Part shown: piece by piece, positions 2,248 to 54,598 of the stretch
Layout of the letters: every line of letters begins with the position of its first letter
How positions within the stretch are numbered: position 1 is the first letter of the stretch
Program-made: the position numbers and the translations under genes
The notes under the pieces: generated by a model
Told to the model about the DNA's origin: nothing
Databases searched by the model: none
Seen by the model: the letters and a program-made list of their open reading frames with translations, nothing else
Assembly (NCBI GenBank): GCA_905178155.1
Contig: CAJINV010000005.1
Span: 5,349,038 to 5,413,037, forward strand
DNA from: Amoebophrya sp. A120
Taxonomy: Eukaryota > Protista > Dinoflagellata
Direction: 5' to 3'
Length of the DNA: 64,000 nucleotides

Positions 2248-5200
2248 ATGAAAATGACGTTGGGCCGCCGTAGCCTTCCACTCTTTTCGCCGGATAGAAG
2301 TTGCTCGAAAATGCGAGGTGACTGCTCCGCTGCAGCGATCGGGATAGCGAAGCTCTTACTTGTCGCGTTGAATATCGCGGTTTTCATTAGTGTCAGCGAT
2401 ACTACGAGCCCATCATTGACTGACAACGGGGACCAGGGACCCGTGCGAGTAGAACATCATGAAAATGCTGCAACTTCTGGACAAGCTCCCGCTGTGAGAT
2501 CTTCATTTGGAGCCGCCGCTCCCATTCTGTTCGCCTACGGGAAGAAGGTAAAAAAATTGCAGAAAATCAAGCTGGGTCGACGAAAGAAAATGAAACTCTC
2601 TCTGAAGAAAGCTTTACTGAACAACTACGTCCAGCCCTATAACCACATCCCCGGCGGAGGTTCCAATCCCGGCCCCCCTATGCCACCACCTGGCGGACTG
2701 CTGTCCGGAGGTCCTCTCGGTGCAGCTCCTCAACTCCCGGCGCCGCAGCAAATTTACATGAACGGCCCGCACCGAGGACAGCAGGGACAGCATGGTGGAT
2801 TTTCACACCCTACTTCTTCACAACAGTCGCTTTTACAGCAGCAGGCAAATTTCTTCCACCAAAGATCTTCTACTGCTTCTGCATCAAGAACCTCCTTCAC
2901 TGGGACGAGGAATTTACCCTCGTCTTCCAAGTTCCACCTTTTCCAGCAAGCCATTGACTCCGAGCGGGGGAAATGCCCCCACTGTCCGGAGATGCCGAGT
3001 TACGAGCTCGCGAAGGTGCAAAAGGTCGCATATGATTACGCAGAAGGGAATGCCCATCCCCCGGGACACGGACCAGGAAACTCCTTTTGGACTACTGTTG
3101 ATAACAGCCCGTATGAGAGTGCAAAACTCCCCCCCCCTTTTTTGTAATGCAAAACCCCAAGTCCAGTTGGTGCCTTGACCTTGTGGATGCACTGGCTGCA
3201 TGACAAATTCCAGAATGTCAAACAGTACTACATTCGGCGCGTGAATTTGTCATGGACAGACTCCACGTGTGTTGGTGGTTGTGATGCTGTTCATGCCATA
3301 CAAATGAGGGGGAGGGGGAGTGGTGCAAACGCATAGCCCGTTGGTGAAGCCCACGAAATACTCCGGCTGGAGTTACAGGGACTACGCAGACAAGGAACTG
3401 CGGTATGTGCAGCTGTTGACCGAGCGGAAATTGCAGGCGGACTTTGATAACTATCTTTTGTACGCGGAGGCCAGATCCACGCAGATTTTCGGAAGCTCGT
3501 TTTTCGGGGGCAGCAGGAGTAGTGCAACTACATCAGGAGTAGACCAATACGCAACGACCCCTAGTACCAGCAGCTCTAGCACCACACGACAGCAGCTGCA
3601 TCCAGACCACCAGTCCGCGGCTCAACATCGCCCACCGCCGAGGGAGCGCTTCACCTTTTCAGATTTGCACTACTATGAGAAACGACAAGGAAACGAGTTT
3701 TTGCGAAAAATAGCCGTGGAGCATGACAAACTCGACCCGACCTTTCAGCAGTACTTTTTCCACGGGACCTCGCTAAGCTTCAGCGACCATGAGCTGCGGT
3801 ATTTGAGTGATCAGGATTTGCACAGTCATGACGATTTCAAGCAGGTGCCGTTGCACGACCACGTGGGGCGGTCTTCTCCAATCGTGCAGCTTATGAGAGT
3901 GCACAACTCCCCCTTCCCCTCATTTGTATGGGATGAACAGCAATACAAACACCAGCACACACGGAGCCTGTGCATGACAAATTTATGCACCTCCTTCTAG
4001 CGTACTATTACTATTTGGCGGGCTTCCGGCATTTGTGATGCAAACGAAACAGTGCCACACGGCAGCGACTGGATTTGGGTTTTTGCATGACAAATGAGGG
4101 GGAGGGGGAGTTGTGCACTGTCATACAGCTTCGCGGTAAAGAAGGGTTGAAGTTCCACAAGAGGTCCACCGGCCGATTGCGCAACATGCTCCGCCTTGGT
4201 TTACAGCAGGAGGCGAACTGCGGGAGCAATGGGAACCTGTACGGATCGGGGATTTATTTAGCGAAGGACTTCCACAAAGCAGCACAGTACTCAAGATGGT
4301 GTTTGTATGTCTTCAGCAAATTTTTTTCTTTCCCGTACGCGTAGAAGTAGTACAAGTAGTGGCTTTGCTTTGGCATGACAAATTTTATTTGCCACAATCT
4401 TCCCCTCGTGACGAGTCTGAATGTTGTACTTCGTTCTAGCAGGACAAGAAGCTTCACGTAAGGTTCTTCTTGGGAGTCCTCACAGTTTTGTACACAAAAA
4501 TGCACGGGAAAAAGGAACGATTTGTGATATTCCATACCTTGGAGAAAGTGCGGATGACTAGCCAGCAAAGCGGCGTCACTCGCGATTATTCCCCTCAAGG
4601 TCGGTGGCAAGCGATTGTGGTGGTGAAACTCACCCTGCCGAGGAAGTACGAGAGAAGGGACAACGGGATTCCGAACAGAGTTGCGAAATTGAAACGCGGC
4701 ACCACCAAGCTGTTCCAACGAGATGTATTCACGAAGCCATCCAAGCCGGAAGAGAAACGAGCCTGGGAAGAAAACCGCGATAGATACTTCCAGCCACGAA
4801 ACCTGATCCGGCGGAAGAGATTTTTTCGGCCGCGCCTTATCAATGGTTTGCCTGCGGTAACTCCGACTCCAGGCACAGCAGCTGGCGCTGCTACAACACC
4901 GGCTGCGCCACAAAAAGATCCTTGGGAAACAGACGTGGTAGATCTGTTATGCATTGCAAAAGTATCGTACTCGTATAAACGCATTACAGATTTCCTCAGC
5001 ATGAGAAAATTTGTCATGCGGATTTACCTTCGGAAAAAGATTTGTAATGCATGACTGCAATTACTACGGGTGCGATACTTTTGATCAGGATATCTGTTTT
5101 ACCCAAGCAAAAATCAGGGCGGCGACATCGATGACGAGGTCGATTCAGAGGACGATAGTACTTCACCAGGTATACTTCGCCGCCTTTTAGGTACAACTAG

Positions 5201-8200
5201 AGCGCCACCAGTCGGACAGTATGACAGCAAGAAGCGGTATCGCAAGAAAAAAAGATTGTAGGTGTAACTTTCTTGGAGGATTAGCGTGACAAATATGTCT
5301 CGCATGACAGCAAAAACCTGTCATGCGCAGATAGAATGTGAAACACCCTTGAATGGACCCTACTATGCAGGGTTAACATGACAGGCGCAATCAATTTACA
5401 TGCTGCGCATCCCAAATTTACACAAACAACTTTGTTTTCTTTCATAAGCGGCAGTTCCGCGTCCGCCACGTGGGTGGGCACGAGTTGACGCCAAAGGAAG
5501 GGTATGCATTGCAAAAGTATCGTACTCGTATAAAAAATGCATTACAAATTATTTCCTCAGCATAAGAATGAAATTTGTAATGCGGATTTACCTTAAGAAA
5601 TGCGTGACTGCAATTCGAGTGTGTACGATACTTCTGCACAGGATAAAGGGAAGCAGCTACACACGGAGTTTGTCGTTCACGATGTGTCTTTACTGGAAAT
5701 TGCCTACATCCTCATCTACGACGTACCTGTCGGCCGAAACCCGGTGACCGACTTCCTAACCGAGTACCAACACGCGCACCACAAAATCGGCCTTGGCGGG
5801 GGTGTCACGGAGGTTATGGGCTACGACCCCATCACCTTACAGCCATCAGCGAATGTAAGGGAGTCCGCGGTAGTGGAGGGAAGGCGATCCTACTGGCGGA
5901 GTTGTGGGGTTTTGAAGGTATACATTGCAAATATGTCTGGGTCTGGAAACTTGTGATGCTAAAAGTGAACGATAGACGCACTGCAATACGCAGCTACGCA
6001 TGACAAATTTTTTGGCTGCCATGTCTTACGTATTCCGCATGGCAAGCTGCGTTTTTGCGTGAAAGGGAAGTGTGCTTTTTCGTGCGTATGCAACACAGGT
6101 TCTCGAGTCATTGTCATGCCACACAAGCATGACAAACTTGCATTCTTCCAGACCCAGACATTTTTGCACTTGATAGAAGGAAGTGTCTGTCGATGAACTG
6201 TGTCTGTGCTGCTCCCCCTGCGTGTGCATTTTGGTGCCGGACTGCGTGAAGGAAAAGATTGCGACAAATTTGAAACTGTGTGGGTCGTTATGCGCGGGAA
6301 ATCTATCGTGCAAGAGCTTCTGCAACGTGTTAAGGAACTGCGCTTGCTGTGCGGATCCGCGGCAAGGGACAGGATTGGCGAAACTTTTGCGAAGTAGCGC
6401 GGGGGGACTGATGAGCGCAGCCGCGTCGTCCTCTTCTAGAAGTAGAGAGTGCACCAGTTTGCCCGGCGGCCGGTTCAATTTTCACAACTTTTCCAACACG
6501 GAATATGACCCACTCGTGTTGGAGGAGGCCATCGAAGGAGGTGGAGAGCAGGGATCAGCACAAGCTGGACATCATGTTCAAAACGCCGTACCACAATCAT
6601 CAAACTGTTGCAGCTGCCTATACAACAGCGCTCCAAGCAGAAATACCACGACGAAAAATCAGTTTTGGTGCGGCTTCGGCGGCCACAACGGATGCGCCCT
6701 CTGTGTGCACGGTGGTTTCGAATGCTTGTGTGGTGAAATCGGGAGGATAAACGGCATCACCTGTATGATTGTGAAAAAAATATATGTTCCCCGCTTGTTC
6801 CCATAAGAATGCAGACTTATTCCCATAATACCTGTGATCATGCAGATTTGATGTCGCCACCAATCCAAAGCAAATCAGCTTTGTCTTGCAGTAGAAATGA
6901 ACTGGAGGTGTAATATGCTAGGCCTGCTCTTCAGCATGATTTTAGACGTTCTTATTGCTGTAGGCTTATGCTAAAGCGCATTTTTACAATATCAATGGCC
7001 TGCCAAATGTTTCCGCTCGCTCTTGCTTCCCAAATATGCAAGACAGAGGCAGTACAGAGGCTGCAGTAGTACCGTACACAAACCAGCAGCACTAAGTTTA
7101 TTGGGGACCACGAGGGGATATTTTTCCTAAACATCATAATAAGCCTAATGGGCGGCTCCGAAGGGAAGGAGCAAAATTGTGATATTTGCAGAATTGGCCA
7201 GGAGTACAAGATCAACGACCAGTGTTTACATCTACAAACGCAAAAGGTATCCTGTGCAAAAGTATCGTACTCGTATAAATGCAAGTCTCGCATCACAAAT
7301 TTTTTTCTTAAGGTAAATCCGCATGACAAATTTTATTTCTCATGCTGAGGAAATTTGTAATGCATTTATACGAATACGATACTTTTGCAGTTCATAAAAG
7401 GATTGCCTGCACAATGTCTGCACCTGTTGCGGACACCACACGACGTATGACAGTGCACAACTTCGTCCCCTCTCCCCCTCATTTGTATAGCATGAACGAC
7501 AATACAAGCATCAGCAAGAGTGCCGATTTTGCATGACAAATTTGCACTGGTGGGATGTAGTGCTGTTTGGAGTTGTGCCAGAACTTGTCATGCAAACAGT
7601 GCCAAGGGGAAGGCACAGCCCGTAACCGTATTTGGGATTTTGCATCACAAATGAGGGTGCGGGGGGAGTTGTGCACTTTCACACGACGCCTGCACCGGGG
7701 TGCGCGGAACAGTTTGTGTCGACGAACGTCATCGATAAATGTATCCTGAGGAAAATCGTGTTTTTGAATTTGTGATGCTATGAACTGGATAAGCAGATGG
7801 ATCTGTGATGCGGCTGCACTTGCTTCTATCCTGCACTGCACTACGGAGTGCAACTTGTCATGCGTGACTCCCAAAGCTTCTAGGTTTGTGTTGCAAAATC
7901 CCCATGATCTTGCCTCTGGCGTCGTGGGGACGTTTTTACTCAGGATAAAGTGCGAGCCGACGGTCTTGTCGAAACTTAGCTGTGGACATCTGGCCGGGAC
8001 AGTGAAGTACGGTTTGCCCCACATGTGTCTGGTGTACCTCGCGATGCAATATCTTCCAGAAAAAAACACCCAGCCCCATCCAATTATTTGTCATGCAAAA
8101 TATGCATAACATCCTGTGTTTGTCATGCGAAAAATGGATGGAAGTGGGTTTTTTTCTGTGGAGATGCAAATCTGTTGCCAAATCGCGACCAGTCTCGGGA

Positions 8201-8307
8201 GCGGGGAATTTGAAGCGTATACTTTAGGGTTGGAAACCCCCTGGGAGCCTGCCGAGGATTACGACGTCGAGCCGGGGGAATTTGTGAAGCTGGTGGATGT
8301 GGAGTAG
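2248..8307 (+). CDS. PARP-like (H-Y-E) ADP-ribosyltransferase with N-terminal hydrophobic segment and Cys-rich C-terminus; multi-exon
   Basis: After element removal: YFFHGTS, LYGSGIYLAKDFHKAAQYS, QAIVVVKL and TEFVVHDVSLLEIAYILIY occur in PARP catalytic order. Region 6764-7082 is unresolved (in-frame TAG at 7067), so the 3' part may be spliced differently or be a separate gene. Confidence 0.7.
3112..3335. mobile_element. TIR intron element F1
   Basis: DR gcccg/gcccg; removal joins DNSP-LVKP in frame. Confidence 0.85.
3892..4125. mobile_element. TIR intron element F1
   Basis: DR cagct/cagct; long TIR; joins IVQL-RGKE. Confidence 0.9.
4306..4536. mobile_element. Degenerate TIR intron element (singleton)
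   Basis: tatg..cata, imperfect TIR, DR gtttg/ccttg; joins YSRWCL-EKVR. Confidence 0.6.
4948..5092. mobile_element. TIR intron element F2
   Basis: DR tctgt/tctgt; joins VDLF-YPSK. Confidence 0.9.
5238..5446. mobile_element. TIR intron element F4
   Basis: DR agcgg/agcgg; joins KKR-QFR. Confidence 0.85.
5503..5645. mobile_element. TIR intron element F2
   Basis: DR aaggg/aaggg; joins KEG-KQLHTEF. Confidence 0.9.
5919..6175. mobile_element. TIR intron element F3
   Basis: DR gaagg/gaagg (can be read as GT-AG); joins LK-EVSV. Confidence 0.9.
6764..6997. mobile_element. Possible highly degenerate TIR intron element
   Basis: tatgattgtgaaaaa vs tttttacaatatca; DR acctg/gcctg; downstream frame hits a stop. 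Confidence 0.35.
7248..7396. mobile_element. TIR intron element F2 (opposite orientation to 4948)
   Basis: DR aaagg/aaagg; joins QK-DCLH. Confidence 0.9.
7446..7683. mobile_element. TIR intron element F1
   Basis: DR cgacg/cgacg; ends ACA. Confidence 0.85.
7742..7947. mobile_element. TIR intron element (singleton)
   Basis: tatcctgaggaaaa / ttttactcaggata; DR aaatg/aagtg. Confidence 0.8.
8050..8164. mobile_element. TIR intron element F5
   Basis: DR tgcaa/tgcaa; ends AGA; joins AMQ-ICC. Confidence 0.85.
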
Positions 8308-9512
8308 AATTGTCGGTCGTAGAGGAGTTGTTTTTAGGACACTTACGAGGAGCAAGGCAAATTTCCTACAGAACAGCATTCGTTTTGCGACTGTGAGATG
8401 ACATTCCAATTTGTCAGAAGATAGTACGATAATATATGATTTGTGTAAGCAAGCTTGTTGGCAGCACATTGTCGACAGGACGACGTCCTCGGCTTGGATG
8501 CCGTTAGTGGTCACCTGTCTCGTGATGAATAAAGAAGATTATACAAGATTTTTTAGTTTTCTGCGAAAACACAAATGCAAATTTACCAGCGAAGTTTCCA
8601 TTGCGAACTAGAACCTCTTTCAGCTCAAGAATGCTGGAACAAATATTACGACCAATAGGCGGCCGCGGCCAAGAACGTCAAAAAGGCCGACCTGACTTTG
8701 AGAATAAAGGATCAATCTGCATCGAAAAATGTAAGCAACGACGGCGATGAACTGCCTAACACCAGCCTATTTTGGTTTATTTGGGAATACAGAAGGATAA
8801 ACTTGCCGATGGACGATTTTGAAGAAAATGAATTGCGACGGACATAGCGAAGAAGTTTTGGAACAATTATTCGGAATTTGAGCTCAGCGAGCACATGCTC
8901 AACAACACGATGCGGGAATCGCCGGAGTCGCCGTTTATTCTGGCATCGGCGGTCTTGTTATCGGCGGAGCTTTATTGCCTTAAGCGAGAGGCGCAATGAG
9001 TACATTCCTCGTCGTGAAGAAAGATGCATTTTTGCATTTTAGCTCAACATCGGCATCGCAATATCGTTGTCGTAGGAGAATAAAATATCGTTTTTTATCG
9101 CTTTCTTTGTTGTGGTCGTATGAGTGCTAGTGTTTGCTGTCCTCGCAGCTCCTTGTTTAGGTCTTCACGACCTCCGTGGTCAACAATTGATTGAGGGCAA
9201 CACGTCCTTCCCTTCGTGTATTCTTTTTTTCCTCGTCGCGTCGATTGGTTCGCCACCAGCAACACGATCATCGTTATATCCTCGACAAGATTAAGATTTT
9301 CCCTCTCTTGCAATTATCCCGACTAGGGATGAACAAGGTGTAGTTCAAACCGTTTTAGACCCTTATTTCTGTGTCTGCTTTGCCAACAACTGGTGTCCAA
9401 CTTTCATATTTGTGATATAGTACTTCAATTTTATTTGGTGGCTCTTACCCAGCAAAGCAACACCCTCACTTCAGCTTCACCCCACAGAGAATCGCAGTGT
9501 TAAAAAAACATC

Positions 9513-12500
9513 ATGCCGGAATCCTCCCCAGCCCCTCTTCCGGATATCCAAGAAAAAAACATTGTAGGTGTAACTTTTTTGGAGGAACAGCATTACAAAT
9601 TTGTCTGGCATGACAGCAAAAACCTGTCATGCGCAGATAGTACGTGAAAACGCCGATGAATGGGCCCTACAATGCCGGCACAGCATGACAGGCTCAATCA
9701 ATTTGCATGTTGCGCATCACAAATTTACACTAACAGCCTTTTTTTCTTGGATACCGGACCTGAGCCGCACAGTGCGGTTCAACGAGGACGAGAATCTGAA
9801 CAACGAGAAGCACGATTTGTCGGGCCTGTTCTACATATGCATTGCAAATATGTCTGGGTCTGGAAGATTGTGAGATTTCTCATGCTAGTTTGGCATAACT
9901 CTGAACTTTGTATTGCGTGGCCATGAAGAACACACTCCTCTGGTCTGTCGTGCAAACACGATGTTTCTCATGCGGAATACGCAACACAGAGCCACGAGAA
10001 AATCTGTCATGTTGCTTGGCGGTGCATTACTTTACAGTGCGCTTCTTGTTCACTGACATGCATCACAAGTTTCCAGACCCACACATTTTTGCACTTGATA
10101 CTACACGACGAGACGGCAGTATTTGATCAACCAACTCCCCGTGACCGAGCCGAAATCGAAACAGTTGACGGAATATCCTGTGCAAAATTATCGTACTCGT
10201 AATATTGCAGTCTTGCATTACAAATCTTGTTCTTAAGGGGTAAATCAGAATTACAAATTTTATTTCTCATGCTGAGGAAATTTGTAATGCATTTATACGA
10301 GTACGATACTTTTGCAATGCATACGGAACTAGAGAAAATCGAACTAGAAGCGAAAGAAGAGCTCGACTTTGCTTTGAAATTTGCCAATGCCTGTAGGAGG
10401 TCAACAGCGGTCGTGAAGGCGGCGCAAGCCGGGTTCTTCGAGGAGGAATCAGAGGACGAATTGAGCTCCACTCCCGTGCCGACTGAATCGGAGAAGGTGG
10501 AGAAGAGTAGCAGCAGTCTGTCATCGCGTGCTGGTGGCTTTACAACATCCATCGAGCGAAGCAGCACCAATGCAGTCGCGAGTGTCGGGAACAAAGGTTT
10601 GCCGGGGTTCAGATCATCTTTTGGGAGAACTACGCAGACTGGTGCACCAGGTGCTGGACAAGAAACCCAGGGGGATGGTGGAGAGCCTCCTCCCCCGACG
10701 AACGAGGAACTCGCAGAGTTAAAGAAGCATGAAGCCATCAAGCAACAAAAAAAGAGGAGAAAGCAGAAGGAAAAATGGGAAAAGTTTTACAACTACTACA
10801 TCGAAACGGGGACGGATTACTTGACGATATCCAGGAAAGGACACCCATCCCCATCCAATTTGTCATGCAAAAGATGGAAAAACTCTTGTGTTTGTCATGC
10901 AAAAACTGGGTGGGGATCGGTGTTTTTTCGTCGATAGACCAACGAAGAGTACTACTGCTGCGAGGAATCGACTATCGAGGAGATCTGCCAGGTCATGTTT
11001 TTGCAAATCCAGTTTCTCGCCAGTAAAAGACAGGAATACAAGGGGTTCAAAGCGGCTGCGGTGCAAGATCGGGCAGATGATGAACAGGCAGCGAAATTGC
11101 AGCTGCGGGATCATGCGGAGGTTCTTGACGGAGTAGATGTTCACAGCTCGTTGAACACTTCGCGGTCTGTGTCCTCCTCTTCCACGACTCCCAAGGGCCC
11201 GTTTCAGGAGCTTCTTGACGCGGCCGGGAATAAAGGGAGAAAACTACCGTTGAAAGACCTGATCATCCAACCGCAGAACACGCCGAGGATCAACACGCGT
11301 AGTGGAAGTAGAAGCAGGGGAGTGGATGGAGGTCGAAGGAATAATGGCAATCGTTGTACTAGCAGCAACTGTAGCAGCAGTTCCTCCGCCACAGAGTCCT
11401 CTTCTTCCGCAAACACTATCTACTCCGGCTCAGCGGAGAGTGTGCGTTCCTTTCTCCGCGAATTGTCGGTCCGGACCCTGGGGTACGATTTATTGCGAGC
11501 GCAGCAGGAGCGAGCCGTCGGAACTACAGCGAGGGCTAGAACAGGAACACGTAGTACTGAAGATGCAGGTGACCACTTAGTTCAACATAGTGGAACCGAG
11601 TCCAACGAATCTACGGGACGAGATGCAGCAGCAGTTGTAGAAGATACGAACAACCAGACCGCACTGCGATTCGTGTTTGAGGTGTTGGATTATGCTTTGT
11701 CAACTACATATCAAATGTAAAAATGTCTGGGTCTGGAAGGTTCTGACACTTGTCATGCACGTTTTGCATGAGCCATGATGTCTGTGATGCATACCCTAGC
11801 AATACAGATTTTCTGAGGGCTTCTTGATGCCTATTCCGCATGACAAATGCCTTCGCAGCGTAGTAAGAATTGCATTCTGATGTTTGCTACTCATGCAATA
11901 CAGATTTTTTTGGAATCCAAATACAGCATTACAAGTTGCATTCTTCCAGACCCAGACATTTTTGCATTTCATACTACAGGAGGCGCGGTGTCTACTTCCG
12001 GTGAAGAAGAACAAGACTACACGACGAGAACTACGGGCCCTCTGCGGAGGTCCAAGAACAACTACACGGCTGGCGCACGAGGGGAATACAGCACGACAGA
12101 AAGAACTGCGAAGCAACTCGCCAGTCGAGTTGTTGCTGCGGCGCTTGAAGATGAAGATCTTCCGGGTGTTGATCAGAGTAGACACGACAAAGATGATATC
12201 AGTTCACTACCCTTCACCGAAGACTTGAAGATCTTGCCGCGGCGAGCGGACGCCGACCACAGGAGCAGGCGGAATAATTTCAAACCCGATACTAGTACAA
12301 CTTGGAAAACCGAACTGGTGGAGTTTCTCGATTTGGAAGAAGTAGAGGCGCAGGCATCTTCATCTGCGGCTTCATCATCATCTGCTGTTCATCATCTTGC
12401 GTCGTCGAGTAGCAACCGGGCTGGTGCAGCAGCTATTCCGCATGACAAGTTCAGCCAATCCTTCGTGCACGCTTTGCTGGACGAAGTGCTTGATCCAGAG

Positions 12501-15500: not shown

Positions 15501-18500
15501 TCAACCTGGACCGCCTGCCGCCCATCTTAACGAACCGCATTCTCGACCTCGGCGGCATACCGCTGGAACTGCGGAGAGGGAAGGACGCGCTGGCGATGCT
15601 AGATCAACTGCCCATGGAGCAGTATTTGCAGTATCAAATGTAAAAATGTTTGGGTCTCCTGGAAGATTGCCAGGTTTGTCATGCATATTTTGCATAACTA
15701 CCCATGATCCCTGTAATGCATGACCTGGCGTCTGCGTCACAGATTTTTGAAGGGCCTTCTGATGCGTATAATTCCGCATGAGAATTAGAAACGGCCACTC
15801 AGCGCAGCACAAACTGCACTCCTCTTGCTGGTCATGCAATACAGATCTTTTTGTTTTTTACCTTCCAAAGACAGCATCATAAGAATAAGTTGCAACCTTC
15901 CAGACCCAGACATTTTTGCATTTGATATCCAGATCGCTTTCACGATTGTGAAAAACAGCTTTGACTACGAAAAGTGCAAGGAAAACATCGGCACGTATTA
16001 CGATCGGCGGCAGCTAGAGCGACCGAAGGAGGCGCTGTTCGAGCTGTTCTTGAAGGGCTGCTATGGGGGGAAAAAGAAAAGGAAAACAGAAGGAACCACG
16101 CAAGTAGAACCATCTTCAGCTAATGGGAAGAACAAGAACAGTAAATCTAAATCCTCGTCCTCCTCCTCCAGAAGAACAAACGAAAAAGAGAACAATAAAA
16201 ACGAGCAAACGGAGCAGGACCTCATTTTCGAACTCAACGATCTCTTTCGTATGCTGGAATACCCGTTAAAAGCGCAACTGACCAAACTGACGACGGGGTA
16301 CTACCAGGCACTCGCGATTTTGGAAGTGAATCCGTTTCCCTCCGAGTCAACCTGTTTCGAGGACGCCCGCGAACTACAGGGAAAGTTGGAATTGATCACG
16401 AGCAAGCCTATCGTTGAATCCGACCCGAGGGCGCTGGAGTTGCTGTTCATTCTGTGCAGCCGAGAGGGGCGGATTTTCGACTTCAAACTGCTCTTTTGGG
16501 AACTGTACTACAAGAGGAAGATGATTGAAGTAAAAGCTGAGGACGGTGATATTAATTTTAATGCGGAGCAGCATGACAAAGACAAAGAACTTCTCGCCGC
16601 AGTCGCAGAAGGAGGAGGTGAAGATGACCTCGTGGAGAAAAGCATTCAACTCAGCGAACTCCAGGACGCGCATCATGTCGGAGATGTATCAAAAAATCAT
16701 CCGGGACAGCAGGACGACGACGATCACGAGCCGCTAGAGGCCAAGTTGCTGTGCAATAAAAACAACAAATCGGACGGCGATAGTACAACACATGAAAGCG
16801 GTCAGCAGTCAGGCGACCAAACAAGGAAGGGTAAAAACCTTTCCTCCGCGAGTTCTTTTGACGAGGATGGTACTGAAAACGCTTCAAGCTCTACCTCGAC
16901 CACCAGGAGAAATGCTCGCGAAAATGATAAATCAGAGCAAGAGATCGGGCGCGAGCGCGTGAACAAAAAGCCGGCGTCTTTCTGGCTGAAGACGCCACTG
17001 CAGTACGGTTTGCAGTTATCCAGGAAAAAAACTGTGTGAGTCGTGTAACTGTGTAGGAAGAGCAGCATCACAAATTCGCTTTGCATTAGAGGGAAAACCT
17101 GTCATGCGCAGCTAGTGCGTGGAAATACGTATGGAAGTAGCCTATGACGCAGATCTAGCATGACAAGTGTAACAGTTTGGCACTTTCTGCATCACAGATT
17201 TACACTCACACAGTTTTTTTCTTGTATAGCAGTGTGTCCAGAACTTTCTGAAGCTCGCGGAGCAGCAGAACTTGTATCTGTTGAAGAATCCGCCGTCTTC
17301 TCCAGCTTTGGATCGCAGCTATGCAAGAAAAAAACTGTGTAAGTGTAAGTCTGTGATGCAAAAAATGCAAAACAGTATACACTTGTCATGCCAGACACCC
17401 ATGATCTCCTCTTTTCATGTGTGTTTTCACATTCACGTACTAGCTTTGCATGACAAGCTTTCTCTGTCATGCAGAGCAAATTTGTAATGCTGGCACTACA
17501 AGATGAGACCTACACTATTAACACAGTTTTTTTCTTGGATAGCAGCCTCAGTCCAACTACAACTCCGTCGAAAAAACTGGACTTGTCGAAAACTAAGCGA
17601 GGGGGTACCACTGCAACTAACACCGATCATCCGAATGCATCTACTCCTGCAAGCCCGACCGGTAGCACGACTAGCAAGGCAAGCTCCGCCACGAAAAGTG
17701 CTACGGGATCGTCAAAAAGCGGAAATAAGAGCAAGGCAGCGACGTCAGCAAAGGCGGCGAAAGCGAAACCAAAAGCGAAAACGGGAGCGAAAATAAACCA
17801 GAGTAGCAAGAATGCGGCGAGTGCGACGAGCACTGTTGCAGTTACCGGCACCGCGTCGACGTTTTTGGTTTTGAGCAAAAACGCGGCTGGGGCGGTGAAA
17901 AAATTGAAAAACAACGTGGGGATTACCACAAAAACGGAGAAGATCTACCATGCGGAGGTTGTGGAAAGTGGTAGTGGAATTGGTAGTTCTAGTACAACGG
18001 GGACACGTGGTCAACAAGAACAACTTTTTCGCGACCAGTTTGTTAAGCCGTTAACGAAAATTCAGAAGACCCGGATTCTGTACAGCGAGTCCTCTATATC
18101 ACAGGAAAAGCGTATAACGTTAACGGTTTTCACAGATTGCAGTCATGCGTCACAAATGTAGCCCACTATGCATGCTAGGCATGACAAATTCTGACACGTC
18201 TTGCGATACATTTCTACATCACAAATTCCGTTAACGTTAAACACTTTTATTTTCGTGTGATACTCTATCGAGGAAAATCGTCTTGTTGCCCGAGACTTCC
18301 TGCGGTTTCTGTTCGCATACCAGGCCTTTGAAACAGCAAGTCCGGAGGCGGGAGATCCAGATCATGAAGTTGTTGATCAAGACGGCACGCAGGAGGGTCT
18401 GAACAAGGAACAGACAGACGCTAAAAAGAAGCCCACGACCGCGACTCCGCTTGTGGACATGTCGGCGCTGCAGAACGCGACGGAGAGCCAGGAGCTGACG

Positions 18501-19479: not shown

Positions 19480-22400
19480 ATGGGCGCCGGAGACGAAACC
19501 CCCATGGAGCAGCAACAGCTGCAGGCAGAGGATGCTCTGATTGATGCGGGACAGGACGCCGAAGCGGAAAACCAGCTATGCTCGTATGTGAAAATTATGA
19601 ATTGCAAAAGTATCGTATGTTGCTTAGTAGTGCAATACAAATTAGCTCAGCATGACACATGAAATTTGTCATGCTGATTCATTTACTTTGAGGAGCAGGA
19701 GACTTGTCATGCATACTTGCGATTACAAGGAATACGACACTTTTGCAAATGATAAAGATCGAGAGGCTGTGTGAATCGGGCGTCAATGTGGCGGATATCG
19801 CGAAGCTGAAACAGGCCTATCCACAGTAAATTTCCTGTACACGTACCAATGCGGTTTCTGCATGACAAAGCTTGCCTTCGATCCTAGTTAGCATGACAAG
19901 TGGCATGCTCTAAGTTGGGAAAATTTGTGATGCATTTTATACGTGTGCGGGAAATTTCCTGTGGATAAGGCCGGTTTCTGCACCACTAACTCGATTGTCT
20001 CCGTAATGCGCGTATGCACTGCATCAAAGGCCGCTGTGTCGCGCTGGTTGTACAAACTGCATGTATCAAAAGCAAGAACTAGATTTGTCATTCTGAATCT
20101 GATTCAAGTAAGGATAAGAATAAGAAAGTAGATTTCATCATTGTAAAAATCCCATACGTCAACAAGAACTGGTACGCGAACACGATACAGCAGCTTTTGC
20201 AGAGGATAGCACAAGGACTTGGTTGCGGTCAAGGGATTAGGCGAGGCGAAAGTGGACAAAATCATCGAAGCGGCCTACAAAACGATGGTATAATACGTAC
20301 GAATGATGAATGATCGTTTTACTTTTTAGGAATGCAAATTCATGCCGTTTTCGGATGACAGAGCCAGAAGTTGAAGTTCCACGCATGATATTCGCATGAT
20401 GATGCTGTTTTGCATCAGAGATTGTTACGCTTCAACATCAACATCAATATCGTGTCGATACCGCAATGAATCATGAATATGAAAAAACATTGTACATATC
20501 AGGGTTCTCTCGTCCTCGCGCAGCAGGCCGGGCAGGGCGGCGGCAATAACGGTCCAGTGTCGCACTTTTTCCAAACGGCCGAGGAAGCGTTAGCGAAGCA
20601 CCAATCCACGCGGTTCTTCATCTCCACCGGCGCCAGCTCCCTGGACGAGGTGTTGCGGGGCGGCATCGAGTCGGGACAGATCACGGAACTGTACGGTGAA
20701 TTTCGCTGCGGAAAGATATCAAATGCAAATTGTATGTCTGGGTCTGGAAAAGTGTGAGTGTGATGCTCAACTTCTATGGATCATGATGAAAACGCTTCGA
20801 AAGCAGCCGAGCATGACAAGTCTGCATAACGATAACCGTTTGTCTTCATACGCAGTGTACATGAACAGAATCTGCCTTCTTGTATGACAAGCATGACTGC
20901 GAGGACTTTATTTGTTGGTCATATTACAATTCAATGCAGATTTTCAAGGATGGGAATGTAAGGCCAGCACTAGTACAAGTTGTTAACTTTCCAGCCCCAC
21001 ACGTATTTGCACTGGATAAAAGACGCAACTGTGCCACACCTTGGCGGTCCAGGGGCAGCTGCACGAACAGTTTCCTATCCCACAGAAAAAAGCCGGCCGG
21101 CCATGTTTGTAATGCAAAAATAAATACACAAAAAAATCTTGCATATCCTTAATAGCATGCTACGGGGCCGCCCATGACAGGTTTTTCTGTGTATTCATTT
21201 TTGCATTACAAATGTGACCTGCCTGCTTTTATTTTTCTCTGGGATATTTCCGGGCCGTTGCCTGTACATCGACACCGAAGGAACCTTATGCATCGCAAAT
21301 AAAGCATCGTACTCGTTGTATAAATGCATTACAAATTTCCTCAGCATGAAAAACGAAACTTCTAATGCGGACTCCCCTTAACGCCTAGATTTGTAATGCA
21401 TAGCTGCAATTAGTACGAGTACGATACTTTTGCACAGGATAAACCTTTCGCCCCGACCGAATCCAGGAGATTTGCCAGGCACTCACCGTTATGCATTGCA
21501 AAAGTCTCGTGGTACTCGTACTATTTGTGGTATACGCAGAAACAAATCTTCTTCTTGAGGTAAAACAGCATGACAAATTCCATTGGTCATGCTGAGCGAA
21601 TTTCTATTGCAATAATCACTTGGTACGGTACTTTTGCAATGCATAACCGTAGACAGCGACGAGATTATGGCGAACATTATTACCGGTACAACTAGTCATT
21701 CCACAACTGCTAGTGTATGTAATGGCGCAAACGCATGACAAATCTAGTTTTTATAGGTAAAGCAGCACTACAAATTTGAATTTCTCCTTCATGAATTTGT
21801 AATGCAATTTTGTGCATCGAATTGGACTTGGCAAAAAATATCAACCACAGCCCGCGCCATGACGTCCGAGCACCTGAACCAGCTGCTGAAAGAGGCCTGC
21901 TCCATATGATTGTGCACAACCCCTCCTTCCCCCCCATTTGCAATGCGAATTCCGTGTTTGCACAATTACAGATACCAGTCTACAATAAAACAGCTGCACT
22001 ACATTCGGGGCGTCGTGAACTTGTCATGCACAGGCTCCCGATGTGTTGGTGTTTCTGATGCTGTTCGTGGACCATGAAAATAAGCTGGAGGGGCAGTTGT
22101 GCACTCTGATATTTCATGATGGTGGACGAGTCTTCCGGCCAGTTTGCGATCGTGATCATTGACTCCATATCAAATGCAAAAATGTCTGGGTCTGGAAGAA
22201 TTGGAACTTGTGATGCAAACTCTGGCACACGCAAAAACTTGTGTTGCGTGAGCGCCAAAAGCTGCCCACTTCTTGGTCCGCAAGTAGGAAGTTTCTCATG
22301 CGGGACAGGCATCATGAGGCGTGCTCAAAACCTGTGATGCTTTTGCCTGCATCAGACGCCATTTGCGTGATCCGAAATATGCATGACAAATCTCGTAATC

Positions 22401-23674
22401 TTCCAGACCCAGACATTTTTACATTTGATACTCCATCATGGGCCTGATGCGGCAGGACTTCACGGGTCGCGGGGAGTTGTCGGAACGGCAGCAGTATCCA
22501 TTGCAAAAGTATCTTCGTACTACTACAAACTGCATGACAAATCTTACCAGAAGGTGGACAAATGACATCTTGTAATGCTGAATTAGCTAAGAAACAGAAA
22601 CAGTAAACCAGATCTGTGTCTGTCATGCTGTACTCCAATGCGTACGAGTGCGACAATTTTTGCAGTGGATAAGCAGCTGCTGGGTAAAACGCTGAACAAA
22701 CTGTCCAAGATTGCCCACGAGTTTAACGTCGCAGTTATCCTATGTAAAAACGCCCCCTTTTGGCTGGTGCGCATGACAGATTTGGCCTCGTAAAAATGTA
22801 GTCGCGTCTAGCTAGTACTGCAGCAGCATCACAGATCCAGTTTGTCATGCTGATTTGAGCATCACAAATCTCAAAACTTCACTAGAAAAAGCCTCTCATG
22901 CGTCTCCGCATGAGAAACATTTTAAGCATGCAGATTTGCATGACAGCGCTGAGGTGGGGATGATTTTACACAGGATAGCAGTGGTGCTGACCAACCAGGT
23001 GATGGCGGATCCGGGCGGCTATCAACTGCAAGGATGTCTGGGTCTGGAAGGATGCAAGGTTGTCAATGTCATGCTTGTCTGGCATGACAGAAAAACTTGT
23101 GATGCGCGTCCAACAAGAGACGACCCTTCTACTTGTCATGCGAAAACGCAGCTTGTCATGCGGAAAGCGCAGCACTATCATAGTGTTCTATCCGAGCACG
23201 TACTATTTCTCATGCTCTGCTGTGCATGACAGGTGGATATTGTCTGTTCACAACCCAGCATTACAAGTTTCCAGACCTCCCAGACATATTTGCACTGCAT
23301 AGCGGCGGTGTGGGTGCGACGTTTAACGCGCCGCCGAAGCCGATTGGGGGCCACGTCCTGGCGCACGCGTCTACGGTCCGGCTGTACTTCCGGAAGGGGA
23401 AAGGCGACGAGCGTGTCGTGAAAGTGATCGACTTATGCATTACAAAAGTATCGTGCTAGTGAAAATCGCATGACATCAAATCTTTTTGAAGAACAAAAAT
23501 AAATGCAATTTGCAATGCTGTTTGCGCTTCACACCAAAAACCTGTCATGCATCATGATTGTGATTGCTACGAGTGCGATACTTTTGCAAGTCATACGACT
23601 CGCCCAATCTACCGGAATCCGAGTGCACGATCCAGCTGTGGGCCGGCGGGGTGCGGAGTCCCGAGGGGATGTGA
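19480..23674 (+). CDS. DMC1: Meiotic recombinase DMC1 (RecA/RAD51 family); 16 exons
   Basis: Reconstructed motifs: [11 protein letters not shown], Walker A GEFRCGKT, YIDTEGTFRPDR, Walker [52 protein letters not shown] and ADPG are DMC1-type rather than RAD51-type. Confidence 0.88.
19596..19754. mobile_element. TIR intron element F2
   Basis: DR aaaat/aagat; joins YVKI-ERL. Confidence 0.85.
19818..19967. mobile_element. TIR intron element F6
   Basis: DR aggcc/aggcc; joins LKQA-GFCT. Confidence 0.9.
20013..20208. mobile_element. Degenerate TIR intron element (F2-like)
   Basis: tatgcactgca / ttttgcagaggata; DR gcgcg/gcaca; joins [10 protein letters not shown]. Confidence 0.7.
20288..20502 (+). 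other. GT-AG intron retaining G-TAT...ATA-NNAG geometry
   Basis: gtata...catatcag; in-frame join KTM-GSL. Confidence 0.7.
20717..21018. mobile_element. TIR intron element F3 inside Walker A
   Basis: DR aaaga/aaaga; joins CGK-TQLCH. Confidence 0.92.
21076..21246. mobile_element. TIR intron element F8
   Basis: DR tttcc/tttcc. Confidence 0.9.
21287..21441. mobile_element. TIR intron element F2
   Basis: DR aacct/aacct; joins DTEGT-FRP. Confidence 0.92.
21490..21645. mobile_element. TIR intron element F2
   Basis: DR accgt/accgt. Confidence 0.9.
21686..21850 (+). other. GT-AG intron with F2-like interior (element relic)
   Basis: gtac...cacag; contains gcatgacaaatctagtt and tttgtaatgcaattt; joins IIT-ARAM. 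Confidence 0.75.
21905..22111. mobile_element. TIR intron element F1
   Basis: DR ctcca/tttca. Confidence 0.8.
22168..22430. mobile_element. TIR intron element F3 next to Walker B
   Basis: DR ctcca/ctcca; joins IIDS-IMG. Confidence 0.92.
22495..22671. mobile_element. TIR intron element F2
   Basis: DR agcag/agcag. Confidence 0.9.
22736..22977. mobile_element. TIR intron element (singleton)
   Basis: tatcctatgtaaaa / ttttacacaggata; DR gcagt/gcagt; joins NVAV-VLTNQ. Confidence 0.9.
23020..23301. mobile_element. TIR intron element F3
   Basis: DR gcggc/gcggc. Confidence 0.9.
23434..23595. mobile_element. TIR intron element F2
   Basis: DR cgact/cgact; joins VID-SPNLPE. Confidence 0.92.
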
Positions 23675-38859: not shown

Positions 38860-41039
38860 ATGTCGGCGTTTCAACCCGGTGCAGCCCCTCCTCCGCCCGG
38901 CGGCATGATGATGCAGCCTGGGGGTCCGGGTCCGGGGAACCAACCGCCCGCAACTAACGATCCAAACGCCCCTGGTGCAGTGGGACAAGACGCGTCTAAA
39001 CAACAAGACCCAAAGCCGGTGGAATCCTCTTCCAGCTTCCAGTATGTGATGGAGAAAAGATTGTGTTTATTTTCATTTCAGCATGACAAACTTCGCCTCA
39101 CGTTCCATCCTGTACTTCTGTGTACGCCATGCAGGAAAATGACCGACAGGGACGAGAGGTGTAGGTACCCCTACTCAACAGTCACATTGCGCACGACTCT
39201 GTCATGCTGAAACAGCATGATCACAGGAGAACTTCAACTTTGGAGAAGTGAGTACTACGGAAGAAGGAGTTTGTCATGCAGGAATGTTGAGAAGATCAAG
39301 ATGACCACTATCTTTTCTCTGTCACAGCCAAGTGATGGTGACTGGAGAATTGGAGGGCGCACAGCTCGGCTCCTCTGGACGCGGACCGCTGATTACGCAG
39401 GAGACAACCCTGCCGTCGACGCATGAGATTTGGCATGATGCAAGACGTCCGTCATGAACATGTAGATCGTGATGGCGCGACCTGTAGTAATGCAAAATTT
39501 GCAGGCCAGATCATGCCGCTGAAGCAGGGAAACCAAAACGGCTTGCAGTGCAACCCACGACGACCAGCAAATCTGTGTTGCGAACAACTCATCTAACCTG
39601 CTCGTCTCCACCATTTTTGCTCTTAATAATATGCAATACAATTTTGATTTTCCGTTGCGGAGGTGGCATGGTTGTATTGCATATTACTGTGCGTCTTCAG
39701 CTTCCAGTGCGGGAACGACTGGTCGGTGGTACAGGGCCACACGCAGGGAATCTATGCATTGCAAAAGTATTACAGATTGTTCGCAATTATTGCAATTCAT
39801 TGCATGACATCTAAGCATTGTAGACGAGAGTCAGCATTACAAAGTTGTCTCTACGAGCTCTGGTCCTTGGAAACGTGAACAAGAACAGTCACGATGCATG
39901 ATACATTATCCACATCACCTACTTGATGATGCAATACCTAGCAACTTCTTTTGCAAAGCATAGATTCACGCAGTTAGCAACCTCCGCGCACCCGACCACG
40001 AAGGTGTCTGGACTTTTCCACGGGGATCCACGGGAGGTAGTGTGGAATTTTCCGCTGGGCGTAACGTACAAGACCACCAACGCCTTCGGTATCCAGGAAG
40101 AAAATTGTGTTACTGTAGGTGTTTTGGAGTGCTGTCCGCATCACAAACTTGCTCCGCATGACAGAGAAAGCTTGTAATGCAGAGCTAGTAGCACGTGAAA
40201 TGAAAACACACATGAAAGGAGGACTTGCGCGGGTGTTTGGCATGACAAGTGTAACTCATTTGCATTTTCTGCATCACAGACTTACACACTTTTTTTCTTG
40301 CATATTCAGCTGGCCGCGGCTAATCGTGTCCGTGTACGGGACGGACCTGTGCAACCGGCGGGTCATCTATCCAAGAAAAAAACTGTGTAAGTGTAACTCT
40401 GTGTTGCAGAAAATACGAAACTGTTACACTTGTCATGCTGGACATGCATCAGAGGCAATTTTTGTGCGTTTTTTCATGTACTAGCTACGCATGACAGGTT
40501 TGCTGTGTCATGCAGAGCAAACTTGTGATGCTACTCCTCCAAGAAACTTACACTTACACAGTTTTTTTCCTGGATATCATCAAGGGCTACGGCAGCATCC
40601 ATGTCCCGTGCTCCCCCGGGAGACACGAAAGGATCATCCGTCTGTTCCGACCCATTTCTTCGTAATAACTTTTCCCTAGAGCAAGAAGCTGTAAATATGT
40701 TGGGGTTATGGTAATCCTTTGCGAGATGGAGTATCTGGATCCGATTGTTGAAACTTGGTGCCCGCCTACGCGGAACAGAGATTCTCGGCTTTTTGAGTTG
40801 TCATTTGTGATCTAAAAAACGGCCATGCGACACTCTCTAAAAAAATCCACAGGTCATGGCTGGTCCGTTTCCTGGGTTGGCTTTTGGGATCTCCGGCGCA
40901 ATTCGTGGATCCGAGGATTATCGGCGGGACAGACGGGAGAGAGGTAGTGCGGGTGCAGTCGGGTGGGAAAGTAAAGGTGGTTTTTAACGTGTTGTCAAAA
41001 GGGCACAAGGACTTCAATTACGACTTAGGGGGTGCGTGA
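38860..41039 (+). CDS. B9D1: B9 domain protein 1 (ciliary transition zone, MKS module); 7 exons
   Basis: Reconstructed: [76 protein letters not shown]; five TIR elements plus GT-AG intron 40662-40852. Confidence 0.88.
39043..39326. mobile_element. TIR intron element (singleton, eroded)
   Basis: tgtgatggagaaaaga / tcttttctctgtcaca; DR tccag/gccaa. Confidence 0.7.
39394..39683. mobile_element. TIR intron element (singleton, eroded)
   Basis: acaaccctgcc / ggcatggttgt; starts TAC; DR ctgat/ttact. Confidence 0.6.
39753..39962. mobile_element. TIR intron element (F2-like)
   Basis: tatgcattgcaaaag / cttttgcaaagcata; DR gaatc/gattc. Confidence 0.8.
40090..40304. mobile_element. TIR intron element F4
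   Basis: DR ttcgg/ttcag; joins AFG-WPR. Confidence 0.88.
40368..40576. mobile_element. TIR intron element F4 (inverted relative to 40090)
   Basis: DR tcatc/tcatc. Confidence 0.9.
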
Positions 41040-47959: not shown

Positions 47960-50900
47960 ATGTCGCGGCATTCACGGCACATCCCGTCCTGGCTCGTCTC
48001 GTTGCCGTTTGCCTTGCGTCATGAGCTCCTGTGGTCTCGACAGCTTGTCTATCCAGGAGAAAACACCCATCCCCAACCAATTTTTGCATGACAAACACTG
48101 GAGCTTGTGCATGTTTTGCATGACACATTGGATGGAGGTGGGTGTTTTTGTCTGGATATTGTCGCCGCGCAGGACGACCGAGTGGTGGTGGAGCCCAAGA
48201 CAGGCTCGGCGCCGCCAGAGCAGCAGGCCGGCGGTGCTGGATCTGCACCTGAGCCACAACCAGAAAAACTCGTGCTCGTGGATGCAGGAGCGGAGGCGAA
48301 AAAAAGGGCGGAGCTATCCGTTGTGGATTTGAGTACAAAAATCACATTCACCGCAGCCACGTGCTCAATTTGCAAATGCAATTCGCAATCGCAACGCCCG
48401 CGGAAGATCAAATAAACGAAGCAAAGTAGTAAGTACGTAGTTGAGTTCAGATTTCATCGCATTGCAACATTGCAGATTGATGCGAGGTCGTTGCGGTGTA
48501 ACCGTGATCCCGGTTTTCCCCTGGAGAAGAATGCGACCAAGCGGGTTTCACCAACGACGCCACTGGAGAGTGCATCAGCCAGGGGTATGACACAGTGTTC
48601 GACACTATCACAGCAAAAAGTGTCAACGTTAACTGCATTTGTGATGCAGTAATATGCATCACAAAACCTCCTGCCCAAAATTTGCCATGCATAGAATGCA
48701 TGCTAGGCAAAATTTGCCATGCATATTTGCAATCTATGAAAACCGTTAGCGTTTTTGTTTGATAGACACCGCGCACGGCAGCAACCGCAACGCCGCCTCG
48801 CACTTGTGGGTCTATCCTGTGCAAAAGTATCGTATTCGTATTGCAAATCTTGCATTACAAATCTTTTTGTTAACTCAAATCCGCATTACAAAATTTATTT
48901 CTCATGCGGAGAAAATTTGTAATGCATTCATACGAATGCGATACTTTTGCAGTTCATAGGGTCACCTATCTGACAAACAAGTTTCGGGACGAGACCATCG
49001 AGTCGGCGGAGGTGTATCTGCGGCAAATGACGAACTTTTGCCCGGTGTCGGGCTCCCCGCTGACCAACGGGGGGATGCAGTTGCAGTACTCAAATTTGAT
49101 ATAGTACCTACAAGAAACTTGCGGTGACAGTAGTTCTTGGAGGAGTTGCTACTTGTGCTTCTTCTAGAGCTTCAACTTCTCCATCTCATCGTAATTTGAT
49201 GTTGTAGAAGATGATAGTAGGACAAGTCTTGCTCCTCAGAGTCAGAGTTTCGGATTGATGTTGTTGTACATCCTTTTTATCATTCTTCACCCAATGCAGG
49301 TGGACCGCGCCGGCAACCGGTTCTGCTGGTTCCTCGTCTTCCACCTACGGCATCCAACCCGCAGCGTCGGGTGTCACCGTACCCGGCGGCTACTCGCACC
49401 ACTGCTGCGTGCTATGCATTGCAAATCTGTCTGGGTCTGTGCGATATTCATATTTGTTTTTGTATTTATTGCAGCACTCGCAACATACGCATACCCCTGA
49501 TGAACCCTGTGATGCATGTTGTGGAATAGCGCCAACCCTCTGTCATGCAGGGACGCGATATCTGATGCGGGTTACGCACATCAACCACAACATAGCGGCT
49601 CATAATTTTTTTCCTCATGCGTGGCGGCGTATAATTGAAATCGGTTTGCGATGCATGTACTAGCATCCCAACTTTCACCAGACCCTGACGTATTTGCAAT
49701 CCATGCGTGCCCTGCGTTTGCGATATGAACACGCACGTGCGCGTGGATGAGTGGACGCCCAAGAACAAGGACAACGTAGCGCTGCTGAAGAACCACGGAA
49801 CGGTAAAGGATAAAGAGGCAGCTGGCACGGTGTACGCTCTTGTGATTCGGGACCCCTGCGCAGCGAATAAGAACGACTCCGCAAAAGCAAAACTGGCGAA
49901 ATTGACGGGCGGCCCCGCGCCGGCAATCATCTGCGATGGGGAAAAATTTTATGCAATACAAATTTTCCGTACATGTACAAAATGCATCACAAATGTCCCC
50001 AATTTGGAGTGTGATGAAACTTGTCATGCTAAACTAGCATCGAAGCCAAGTTTTGTCATGCAGAGACCGCATTTGTACGTCTACGTGTACAGGAAATTTA
50101 CTGTGGAGAAATTGAAGGCCGGCGAAGTGGAAACTAGCGACAACGGGTTTGTCGTCATTGGTCTCTACTACACCCAAGCCGCTGGCTATCGCAAGAAAAA
50201 AGTGTTACAGTTACACACTGTCTTGCAGGTCAAGCAAGACAGAAAAGCTCTGTCATGCCGGATATGCATAGGAGCCTCTTTTCATAGGTGTTTTCCCGTA
50301 GGATTTCTGCATTCCAGGTTTTCTCTCTCATGCAGGGACATTTGTGTTGCTGAATTGCCTACAGATGTGTAACGGTAACACTTTTTTCGTGGGATACTGG
50401 CCAGTCCGAAACTGCGGAGGCCGCGATGCCGCAGACCGAGTGCGCCGCCCGGTCCTCCGCTGGCTGTGCGCAATCCGGGATGGGAGCCATTTTTATACAA
50501 GTATTAAACTAACAGTACTAGTAAGTACACGTCGCCTGCCTTCCTGTTGTACCGGTTTTTGTGGAGGTGAAACTACAAGCGTGACAAACTAGATTACGAC
50601 ACACGTATCAAACACCGAATACTCCTTACTCATGCAAATGAACATGCACACCGAATACTCCTTACTCATGCAAATGATCATGCAAATGAACATGCACACC
50701 GAATACATCATGCAAATGAACATGCACAACATGATGGTTTCAGGCCGCCTGCTTGGGTTTCGCCCCAGATGCGAGTGGTGCTGCAACGGCACAGAGGAGA
50801 AAAGCTACAGGCTCAGACAGCTTCTGGAGCATGCCCGACGAATATGAAAGTGCACAGCTTTCCCTTCTCCTCATCTGTCATGCAAAAAAACCACCTTTTT

Positions 50901-54093: not shown

Positions 54094-54222
54094 GAAGGTA
54101 GGAAAAGGAGGGGCGTTGTAAGACGCCGAACCGACGAGCCACGCGTCCATTGAACCGGGCCACACTTCAAGTAGTATAAAAATCTTGTGATGGTAAAAGC
54201 AGAAGGAGTAAGTGGCACAAGC

Positions 54223-54598
54223 TGTAGATGAATTCCGTTGAAGATGCAAACTCGTGGCGAAGGAGGTCGAGCAGTATCAATGTAGAGAAGTTGTAGATGT
54301 ATCAAATGTAAAAATGTCTGGGTCTGGAAGAATGCAACTTGTAATGCGTATTTCAGAACACAGAAAAGTCTCTCATGTATACGTAGCAAAAGCTCCCACT
54401 TTTTGTCAGAAAAATAGGGGACTTGTCATGCGGATTCGGCATTGCGGAAGGTTCTCGAAACCTGTGATGATAGAGCTTCCATGCCAGACCTTCTGTGTCA
54501 TGCAAAAACAGCATGACCCTTTCAGACCCAGACATTTTTGCATTTCATAAGATGAATTCCGTTGAAGATGCAAACTCGTGGCGAAGGAGGTCGAGCAG
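54223..54598. repeat. About 52-bp direct duplication, second copy interrupted by an F3 element
   Basis: tgtagatgaattccgttgaagatgcaaactcgtggcgaaggaggtcgagcag at 54223-54274 and again at 54292-54299 plus 54555-54598. Confidence 0.9.
54300..54549. mobile_element. F3 element downstream of the stop codon (probable 3' UTR)
   Basis: DR agatg/agatg. Confidence 0.9.

Follow-up and report, generated by a model that had tools for sequence, protein, structure and literature searches.

The window analysed here is a stretch of 64,000 nucleotides of the dinoflagellate Amoebophrya sp. A120 (contig CAJINV010000005.1, positions 5,349,038 to 5,413,037), in which genes are interrupted by short elements with inverted-repeat ends and flanking 5-nt direct repeats. 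Judged by their sequence, these elements are the introners published from A120 by Farhat 2021. They act as introns in either orientation, as an earlier note on this DNA had claimed; they need no GT/AG pair at their borders, and their removal takes place at the RNA level. If one register holds for all copies, the cut would fall after the fourth base of the repeat, leaving introns of the form N-TAT...ATA-NNNN. We incline, with considerable reservation, to the view that removal is due to a relaxed U2-type spliceosome. Since the element ends are inverted repeats, they would supply an N-UAU donor on both strands. What is added here to the searchable texts is the two-way, AG-free rule for A120 with its proposed fixed register; the element class and introners working in two directions have already been published.

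Elements and their orientation

Two annotated A120 proteins, P0001 and P0076, map to the window with 0 mismatches after repeat removal, which identifies its source. P0001 was found by single-exon protein search and P0076 likewise, at 100% identity. Scanning for elements that begin with TAY, end with RTA and are flanked by a 5-nt repeat returned 78 candidate pairs, compared with 2-10 per Markov-shuffled window (n=10). The element set consists of 69 non-overlapping candidates and eight decayed copies added by hand, 77 together; a relaxed scan for further decayed copies was too noisy. All counts refer to the 64-kb window unless the second assembly is named.

Logos of the element ends read TAT-N7-AAA on both sides, with the 5-nt direct repeat at the borders. 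TAT is present at the 5' end of 74 elements and ATA at the 3' end of 72 out of 77. A120 introners are described as having an inverted-repeat motif of TAT, seven nucleotides and three As, direct repeats of 3-5 nt and RNA-seq-supported removal, and 29,850 copies are reported (Farhat 2021, PMC7789003). Each of the features compared agrees with this description: the host, the inverted-repeat motif TAT + 7 nt + AAA, the repeat size and the removal from RNA in families with non-GT/AG ends. No transposase was found in the 64-kb window, and no search was aimed at a cognate DDE transposase.

Families were clustered on internal sequence alone, with zero orientation conflicts. The earlier note had named seven pairings of F2, F4 and F6 copies as reverse-complementary, and all seven are closer in this sense (71-85% global identity as reverse complement, 54-67% on the same strand). 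F2 copies 4948..5092 (repeat TCTGT on both sides) and 5503..5645 (AAGGG) lie in orientation A, while 7248..7396 (AAAGG) and 10174..10323 (CGGAA) lie in orientation B. Their pairings give 84 vs 62% (4948/7248), 85 vs 60% (4948/10174), 77 vs 67% (5503/7248) and 78 vs 66% (5503/10174). F4 copies 17017..17228 (A) and 17320..17541 (B), sharing one gene, give 73 vs 58%, and F4 copies 40090..40304 (A) and 40368..40576 (B), both in a B9-domain gene, 71 vs 54%. The remaining pair, 19818..19967 (B, in DMC1) and 49950..50109 (A), belongs to F6, which clusters with F2, and gives 80 vs 57%.

Both orientations are common, and some families may be mildly biased. Counted per family, a check proposed along with the claim of two-way use, orientations are balanced in the window: 12:12 for F2 with F6, 7:8 for F1, 4:5 for F4, 4:3 for F3 and 3:2 for F5, smaller clusters showing 1:2, 3:0, 1:1 and 1:1, with seven singletons. 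The balance is less even in a second assembly, JACKZZ01 (loci L001-L158), which was found via pattern search. Its DNA holds 294 such elements, scanned with a limit of <600 nt, and window families recur in it with up to 94% identity. Among 111 of its elements with a host strand deduced from open reading frames (ORFs), F1 is split 19:35 (p=0.04), F4 1:9 (p=0.02) and F2 9:11; under a stricter strand call the splits are 17:24, 2:5 and 6:8. No empty sites were found in the JACKZZ01 metagenome loci because these share no exon with the window. JACKZZ01 is a resource for empty-site comparison.

Removal from RNA

Transcript evidence comes from contigs of runs X3-X6, all from one sample of one study. 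Their designation as RNA is a guess; since they skip GT-AG introns, they are taken as spliced RNA of + strand transcripts. Among the 15 joints listed (of 36) between 44000 and 63900, the length skipped is exactly one element and 5 nt in 14 cases; the remaining joint belongs to a GT..AG intron of the same contig. A single RNA-like contig skips F2 copies in both orientations, 56823 and 57023 (A) together with 59149..59299 (B, joint 59146 to 59303). Further joints are those of F2 copy 53517..53669 (A, 53511 to 53670, two runs) and F3 copy 50843..51064 (50837 to 51065). Outside this stretch, F1 copy 5919..6175 (A) is bridged by an X3 joint from 5913 to 6176, again the element and exactly 5 nt. X4 record coordinates and bin depths are consistent with one contig devoid of the 15 elements in the P0001 gene and a second that lacks 13 of the 14 in the next gene. 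X4 depths agree with complete splicing wherever cross-mapping from other copies is absent, which brings RNA support in this stretch to 32 elements; 5919 is added by X3. By orientation, it covers seven A and four B copies of F2/F6, and five A and four B copies of F1. Most of the X4 bins with too high a depth receive cross-mapping from other copies, and a further transcript lies in 54624-55287. X3 gives little or no cover over 9545-15065.

Beyond the stop codon of P0001, within a duplication of ~55 nt (54220-54606), stands element 54300. A further contig (depth 78), from a transcript that could belong to either strand, skips it; non-coding copies are also removed. In raw-read run X9 the genes had no cover, and 97 partial reads fell on element ends. 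The F1 end at 22396-22430 also occurs in X9, where 93 raw RNA reads that come from another locus contain it; abundant RNA therefore still holds some copies.

Removing each element with one repeat opens long + strand frames of 530 aa (4440-6803), 2234 aa (9504-18593, 11 elements), 1146 aa (8 elements) and 1662 aa (14 elements), as well as the DMC1/Rad51 gene. When elements are kept, any + frame stays open in just 7 of 77 cases. For F2 copies 4948, 5503, 7248 and 10174, removal is deduced from the restored frame and the behaviour of sister copies. For 4948 the intron would span 4947-5096, restoring frame 4440-6803; 7248 lies in a 169-aa frame (7070-8304) and 10174 in the 2234-aa frame, while 5503 was placed by scan, clustering and frame. 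The claim that all frames are restored fails for one copy, 57866..58029, which is retained in RNA.

DNA-level removal, which the earlier note had also considered, finds no support. Ciliate internal eliminated sequences (IESs) have short repeats, one copy of which is kept when the element leaves the DNA. A120 elements resemble them in the short repeats and the single kept copy, but stay in DNA. Exact loss of the element with one repeat, as well as strand symmetry, would suit programmed excision with 5-nt repeats as pointers, and the DNA evidence is from contigs of one sample (run X1), where rare variants are dropped. However, 8 of 8 listed X1 contigs cross or enter element borders unbroken at depth 24-34, the whole of 8050, 20013 and 20717 being included. 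No element-skipping joint is found among the 15 DNA joints listed (1107 more in the set), JACKZZ01 DNA likewise keeps its elements, and the contigs that skip elements lack GT-AG introns too. Furthermore, copies whose repeats match at 2/5 (48315) or 3/5 (20013) positions are lost with an unchanged length; removal thus does not depend on identical repeats, and the repeat is no pointer. Since DNA contigs keep the elements, which would be absent from expressed DNA if they behaved as IESs, such excision is highly improbable. We give very little credence as well to false introns produced by reverse transcriptase switching templates over hairpins at the direct repeats. Short direct repeats around hairpins are a known substrate for template switching, and the RNA evidence consists of assembled contigs. 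Yet few frames survive retention (7 of 77), homology of DMC1 and B9 demands removal, all 15 elements are gone from one contig, one register fits all informative junctions, and weak repeats are skipped while the perfect repeat of 57866 is kept.

Position of the cut

A perfect repeat leaves six possible registers, which probably accounts for the large number of splice-site motifs in Farhat 2021. The cut was placed from imperfect repeats, on the assumption of one register for all elements. On the left side, base 1 is retained at 61581, and base 3 at 59149 (RNA), 39753 (Ile in 3/3 covering B9 homologs) and 20013 (homologs). The last is a decayed introner (20013..20208) where, by hand reading, homologs are compatible with just two cuts, those following base 3 and base 4 of the repeat. 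Left base 4 is required at 40090, where the repeat has a mismatch at base 4 and a conserved Gly occurs in 5/5 covering B9 homologs (2/7 fetched are without coverage). On the right side, base 5 is retained at 50843 and 52202..52341 (RNA), at 48315, 49950 and 63441 (annotation) and at 20013 (homologs). The sole cut that fits all informative repeats is the one after base 4. The annotated A120 proteins, which span 15 and 8 elements, match with 0 mismatches under registers 0-4 and 1-4, respectively. In JACKZZ01 metagenome loci, 29 elements with imperfect repeats provided no stop codon that discriminates between registers.

Features of the element ends

In this register 76 of 77 elements start with N-TAY. 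Canonical donors in the window, three of them defined by homology only, read GTA in 8/8 and GTAY in 6/8 cases, so that elements and host donors agree from +2 to +4. G at +1 is not clearly enriched (29/77, p=0.054). The U2-type combination of a GT/GC donor and an AG acceptor is not seen: GT..AG is read in 2 of 76 elements, in the sole register giving any, and 5919 reads GT..AG by chance. Conventional signals on both strands, one of the observations that would have spoken against the earlier note, are hence not borne out at the observed joints. Its premise was that splice signals are strand-specific, so that two-way use points to symmetric features. This premise needs revision, since a strand-specific N-TAT donor is compatible with use in two directions.

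The donor reading is supported by the fate of altered copies. The lone copy without 5' TAY, F2 copy 57866..58029 (B), has CAC in place of TAT and a perfect repeat, and is retained in an RNA-like contig: no joint is listed for it, record coordinates show a 169-nt excess, depth agrees and the annotated protein starts downstream. Through its retention in the dominant contig, the 1662+ aa frame would be split by a stop codon (57897), and the public model starts at 58514. Alterations of the 3' end did not prevent removal in three copies.

The terminal fold is predicted to comprise at least 8 terminal pairs on either strand in 71/77 elements. Selection on RNA pairing was not detected: G-U and A-C combinations number 37 and 35 in the window, 57 and 42 in JACKZZ01 (p=0.16). 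Sense-strand folding has no advantage across window elements. Inverted-repeat positions 4-8 are paired in just 38-55 of 77 elements, positions 1-3 and 11-13 being conserved, and copies with few terminal pairs are removed (49950 with 3, 48315 with 5). As these pairing tests are negative, recognition guided by structure only, proposed in the earlier note, remains unproven.

Elements of unrelated families have in common an internal motif, GCATKACAAR, which every one of the 75 tested elements contains, 63 of them on both strands. Strict matches number 145 in 15.1 kb of elements and 11 in 48.9 kb outside. The motif often lies 35-48 nt from the ends and points outwards (e.g. 7248-7396), its distance to the 3' end ranging from 20 to >200 nt. 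It could be a candidate transposase-binding subterminal repeat, or a site for a host factor. Its role as branch point was rejected, the sense-strand copy being dispensable. Some GT-AG introns also hold GCATKACAAR on both strands.

This motif enters an explanation that we consider improbable, namely that an ordinary spliceosome uses conventional signals on both strands: GCATKACAAR would be the branch point, and GT/GC and AG in the vicinity would be the splice sites. Its ubiquity, its TGAC-like core and an in-frame GT/GC..AG pair within 12 nt in 45/76 elements would agree with this. However, RNA joints correspond to the element plus exactly 5 nt, elements 52202 and 54300 are removed although the + strand motif is missing, the distance to the 3' end is variable, and motifs outside elements have no strand bias (20:17). 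A less remote, still doubtful explanation is a separate non-spliceosomal machinery that cuts and joins RNA in the same register and recognises paired or symmetric ends, like the one proposed for euglenids. Missing AG, branch consensus and fixed end bases are in accordance with it, and so is the terminal pairing found on either strand. The distances between stem and cut, 1 nt and 4 nt, resemble the Euglena spacers of 3 and 5-6 nt, the retained 57866 is the only copy with 0 sense-strand terminal pairs, and U1 small nuclear RNA (snRNA) was not detected in A120. On the other hand, the pairing shows no signal of selection, poorly paired 49950 and 48315 are removed, and positions +2 to +4 at the 5' end of the elements are those of the host donor.

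We return to the relaxed U2-type spliceosome, under which events could be as follows. The transposon would be inserted by a DDE transposase with a 5-bp target duplication. In pre-mRNA, the cut would be made after repeat base 4 in a single fixed register, as the imperfect repeats suggest. N-TA(T) would be taken as a host-type GTA(Y) donor in which any base is allowed at position 1. The 3' cut would be set by distance, 4 nt past the element end and independently of AG, and the inverted-repeat ends may assist. Nearly all spliceosomal proteins are reported from A120 (PMC7789003).

Several observations weigh against a relaxed spliceosome or limit its reach. AG occurs at the proposed 3' site in 7/77 elements (background 7.5%, p=0.52), and the branch consensus YTRAY in 13/77 elements and 1/7 canonical introns, showing no excess. 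Neither the first nor the last base of the intron is constrained, a condition that ordinary spliceosome chemistry tolerates poorly. Copy 57866 has lost both TAT and terminal pairing, so sequence and structure are inseparable in this one case (n=1), and in JACKZZ01 the 5' and 3' ends show no difference in tolerance (2 vs 5 of 116). The choice of base 4 over base 3 is made by one element, 40090, through homology and not RNA. RNA runs are contigs from a single sample and may underlie the annotation itself; 4948, 5503, 7248 and 10174 are not among the RNA joints listed. As to completeness, 7742 is kept in an X3 contig (depth 3.6). To these may be added the mild orientation bias of F1 (p=0.04) and F4 (p=0.02) in JACKZZ01. 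A120 U1 snRNA was undetected in the published search (PMC7789003). Finally, TA..TA ends could be a mere transposon signature, as in IS3EU/GingerRoot.

Relation to known systems

Comparisons in this section refer to the searchable parts of the cited texts. For A120, splice sites are called variable and the border unknown (PMC7789003). T stands at +2 in all nine predominant A120 non-canonical motifs of Table S4 (PMC7789003), motifs which are shaped by aligner preference and strand errors. The legend of S23 places repeats 1-5 nt from splice sites, and introns of A25 begin with TT, their repeats starting with TTA (PMC7789003); like the T at +2, this agrees with the donor reading. Neither element orientation nor a fixed register is stated for A120 in the searchable text, where "orientation" is used of gene blocks only, although part of the present findings may be contained in Figures 3 and S19-S25 (PMC7789003). 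Relative to that text, both orientations, the strict 5-nt repeat, one proposed register and the common internal motif are added here.

Introners with terminal inverted repeats and target duplications form introns either way in Polarella glacialis and Aureococcus anophagefferens (bioRxiv 10.1101/2020.10.14.339549). There, either the element or its duplication provides the GT/GC/GA and AG sites, more than one frame is used and orientation is biased (bioRxiv 10.1101/2020.10.14.339549). In A120, by contrast, removal does without AG, sets no constraint on the duplication and restores the mRNA exactly.

Nonconventional introns of euglenids have non-GT/AG ends, terminal inverted repeats, direct repeats and fixed spacers between stem and cut, and an origin from miniature inverted-repeat transposable elements (MITEs) was proposed for them (PMC12501133, PMC11282704). 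A120 elements are like them in the non-GT/AG ends, in inverted and direct repeats and in the fixed spacing of cut from stem. However, the euglenid code N3CDG..CHGN5-6|R is not found in A120 elements, which read N-TAT..ATA-N4. Moreover, euglenid pairing was shown genetically and circular products are reported, whereas A120 pairing is predicted and unsupported by selection tests, and the lineages are unrelated. MITE-derived non-GT/AG introns are also known from Fritillaria borealis, where they are handled by a U2-type spliceosome; these differ from A120 in their own preferred ends, AG-AC and AG-AT, and U1 is conserved (PMC13326754, PMC11282704). Among transposons, IS3EU/GingerRoot share TA..TA termini and terminal inverted repeats with the A120 elements but usually make 6-bp duplications, compared with 5 bp in A120 (PMC10045372).

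Host genes and further copies

The first genes of the window hold several more introners. F4 copy 5238..5446 (A), next to 4948, and F1 copy 9836..10100 (B) were placed by scan, clustering and frame, as were 17017 and the F4 copy 9545..9753 (A), which lies in the 2234-aa frame. F3 copy 7446..7683 (B) ends in ACA. The introner at 7742..7947, the one kept in X3, has an imperfect repeat. F5 copy 8050..8164 (A) ends in AGA, as does 49950; one record starts at 8163, its other side being outside the listing. Copy 52202 is F1-related and stands in orientation B.

The DMC1/Rad51 gene (19480..23674, + strand), with A25 ortholog P0005, contains 13 introners in both orientations, and DMC1 homologs align across 12 junctions of mixed orientation. 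Nested in its GT-AG intron 21686-21850 is an F2 relic, 21693-21840. Its decayed ends suggest that ends are maintained only where they are needed. Interpretation of this relic as an element with a gained AG was rejected, since it sits inside a GT-AG intron. The gene with the B9 (ciliary transition zone) domain, 38860-41040, has three introners; PDB search gave no B9 match. The P0001 gene (839 aa, 47960..54093, + strand) has 15 introners and three GT-AG introns, and a 2746-nt RNA-like contig fits its full splicing. The long gene of P0076 (55942..64000, + strand) has 14 introners within the window, and the annotated protein starts at 58514, past the retained element.

In two paralogs, an identical codon position is occupied by an element (43604-43863 and 49413-49705). 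Repeats differ at base 4 in both copies, the elements are merely 54% alike and a GT-AG intron position is also common to the two genes; either an old shared insertion or a reused site would account for the pair. A further element begins at 63877 and runs past the window end, and RNA contigs match exactly as far as 63876. Protein kinase gene fragments (Pfam PF00069) are located at 25290-30445. Rfam search returned 0 matches.

Significance for A120 introns

At stake is the splicing of >60% of A120 introns, whose borders were called variable or unknown in 2021. A single register is a testable rule: it predicts the ends of excised RNA and aids gene annotation. Possibly, though we lean against it, one strand-symmetric rule, with cuts 1 nt ahead of TAT and 4 nt beyond ATA, serves tens of thousands of these "variable" introns, with no consensus for G+1, AG or branch point, and is carried out either by a non-spliceosomal cutter-ligase or by a spliceosome measuring from the transposon ends. 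If this were true, any insertion by this transposon family would be harmless in either direction. Two-way removal that leaves no trace would explain ~30,000 exonic copies, since neither a target sequence nor a direction would be needed.

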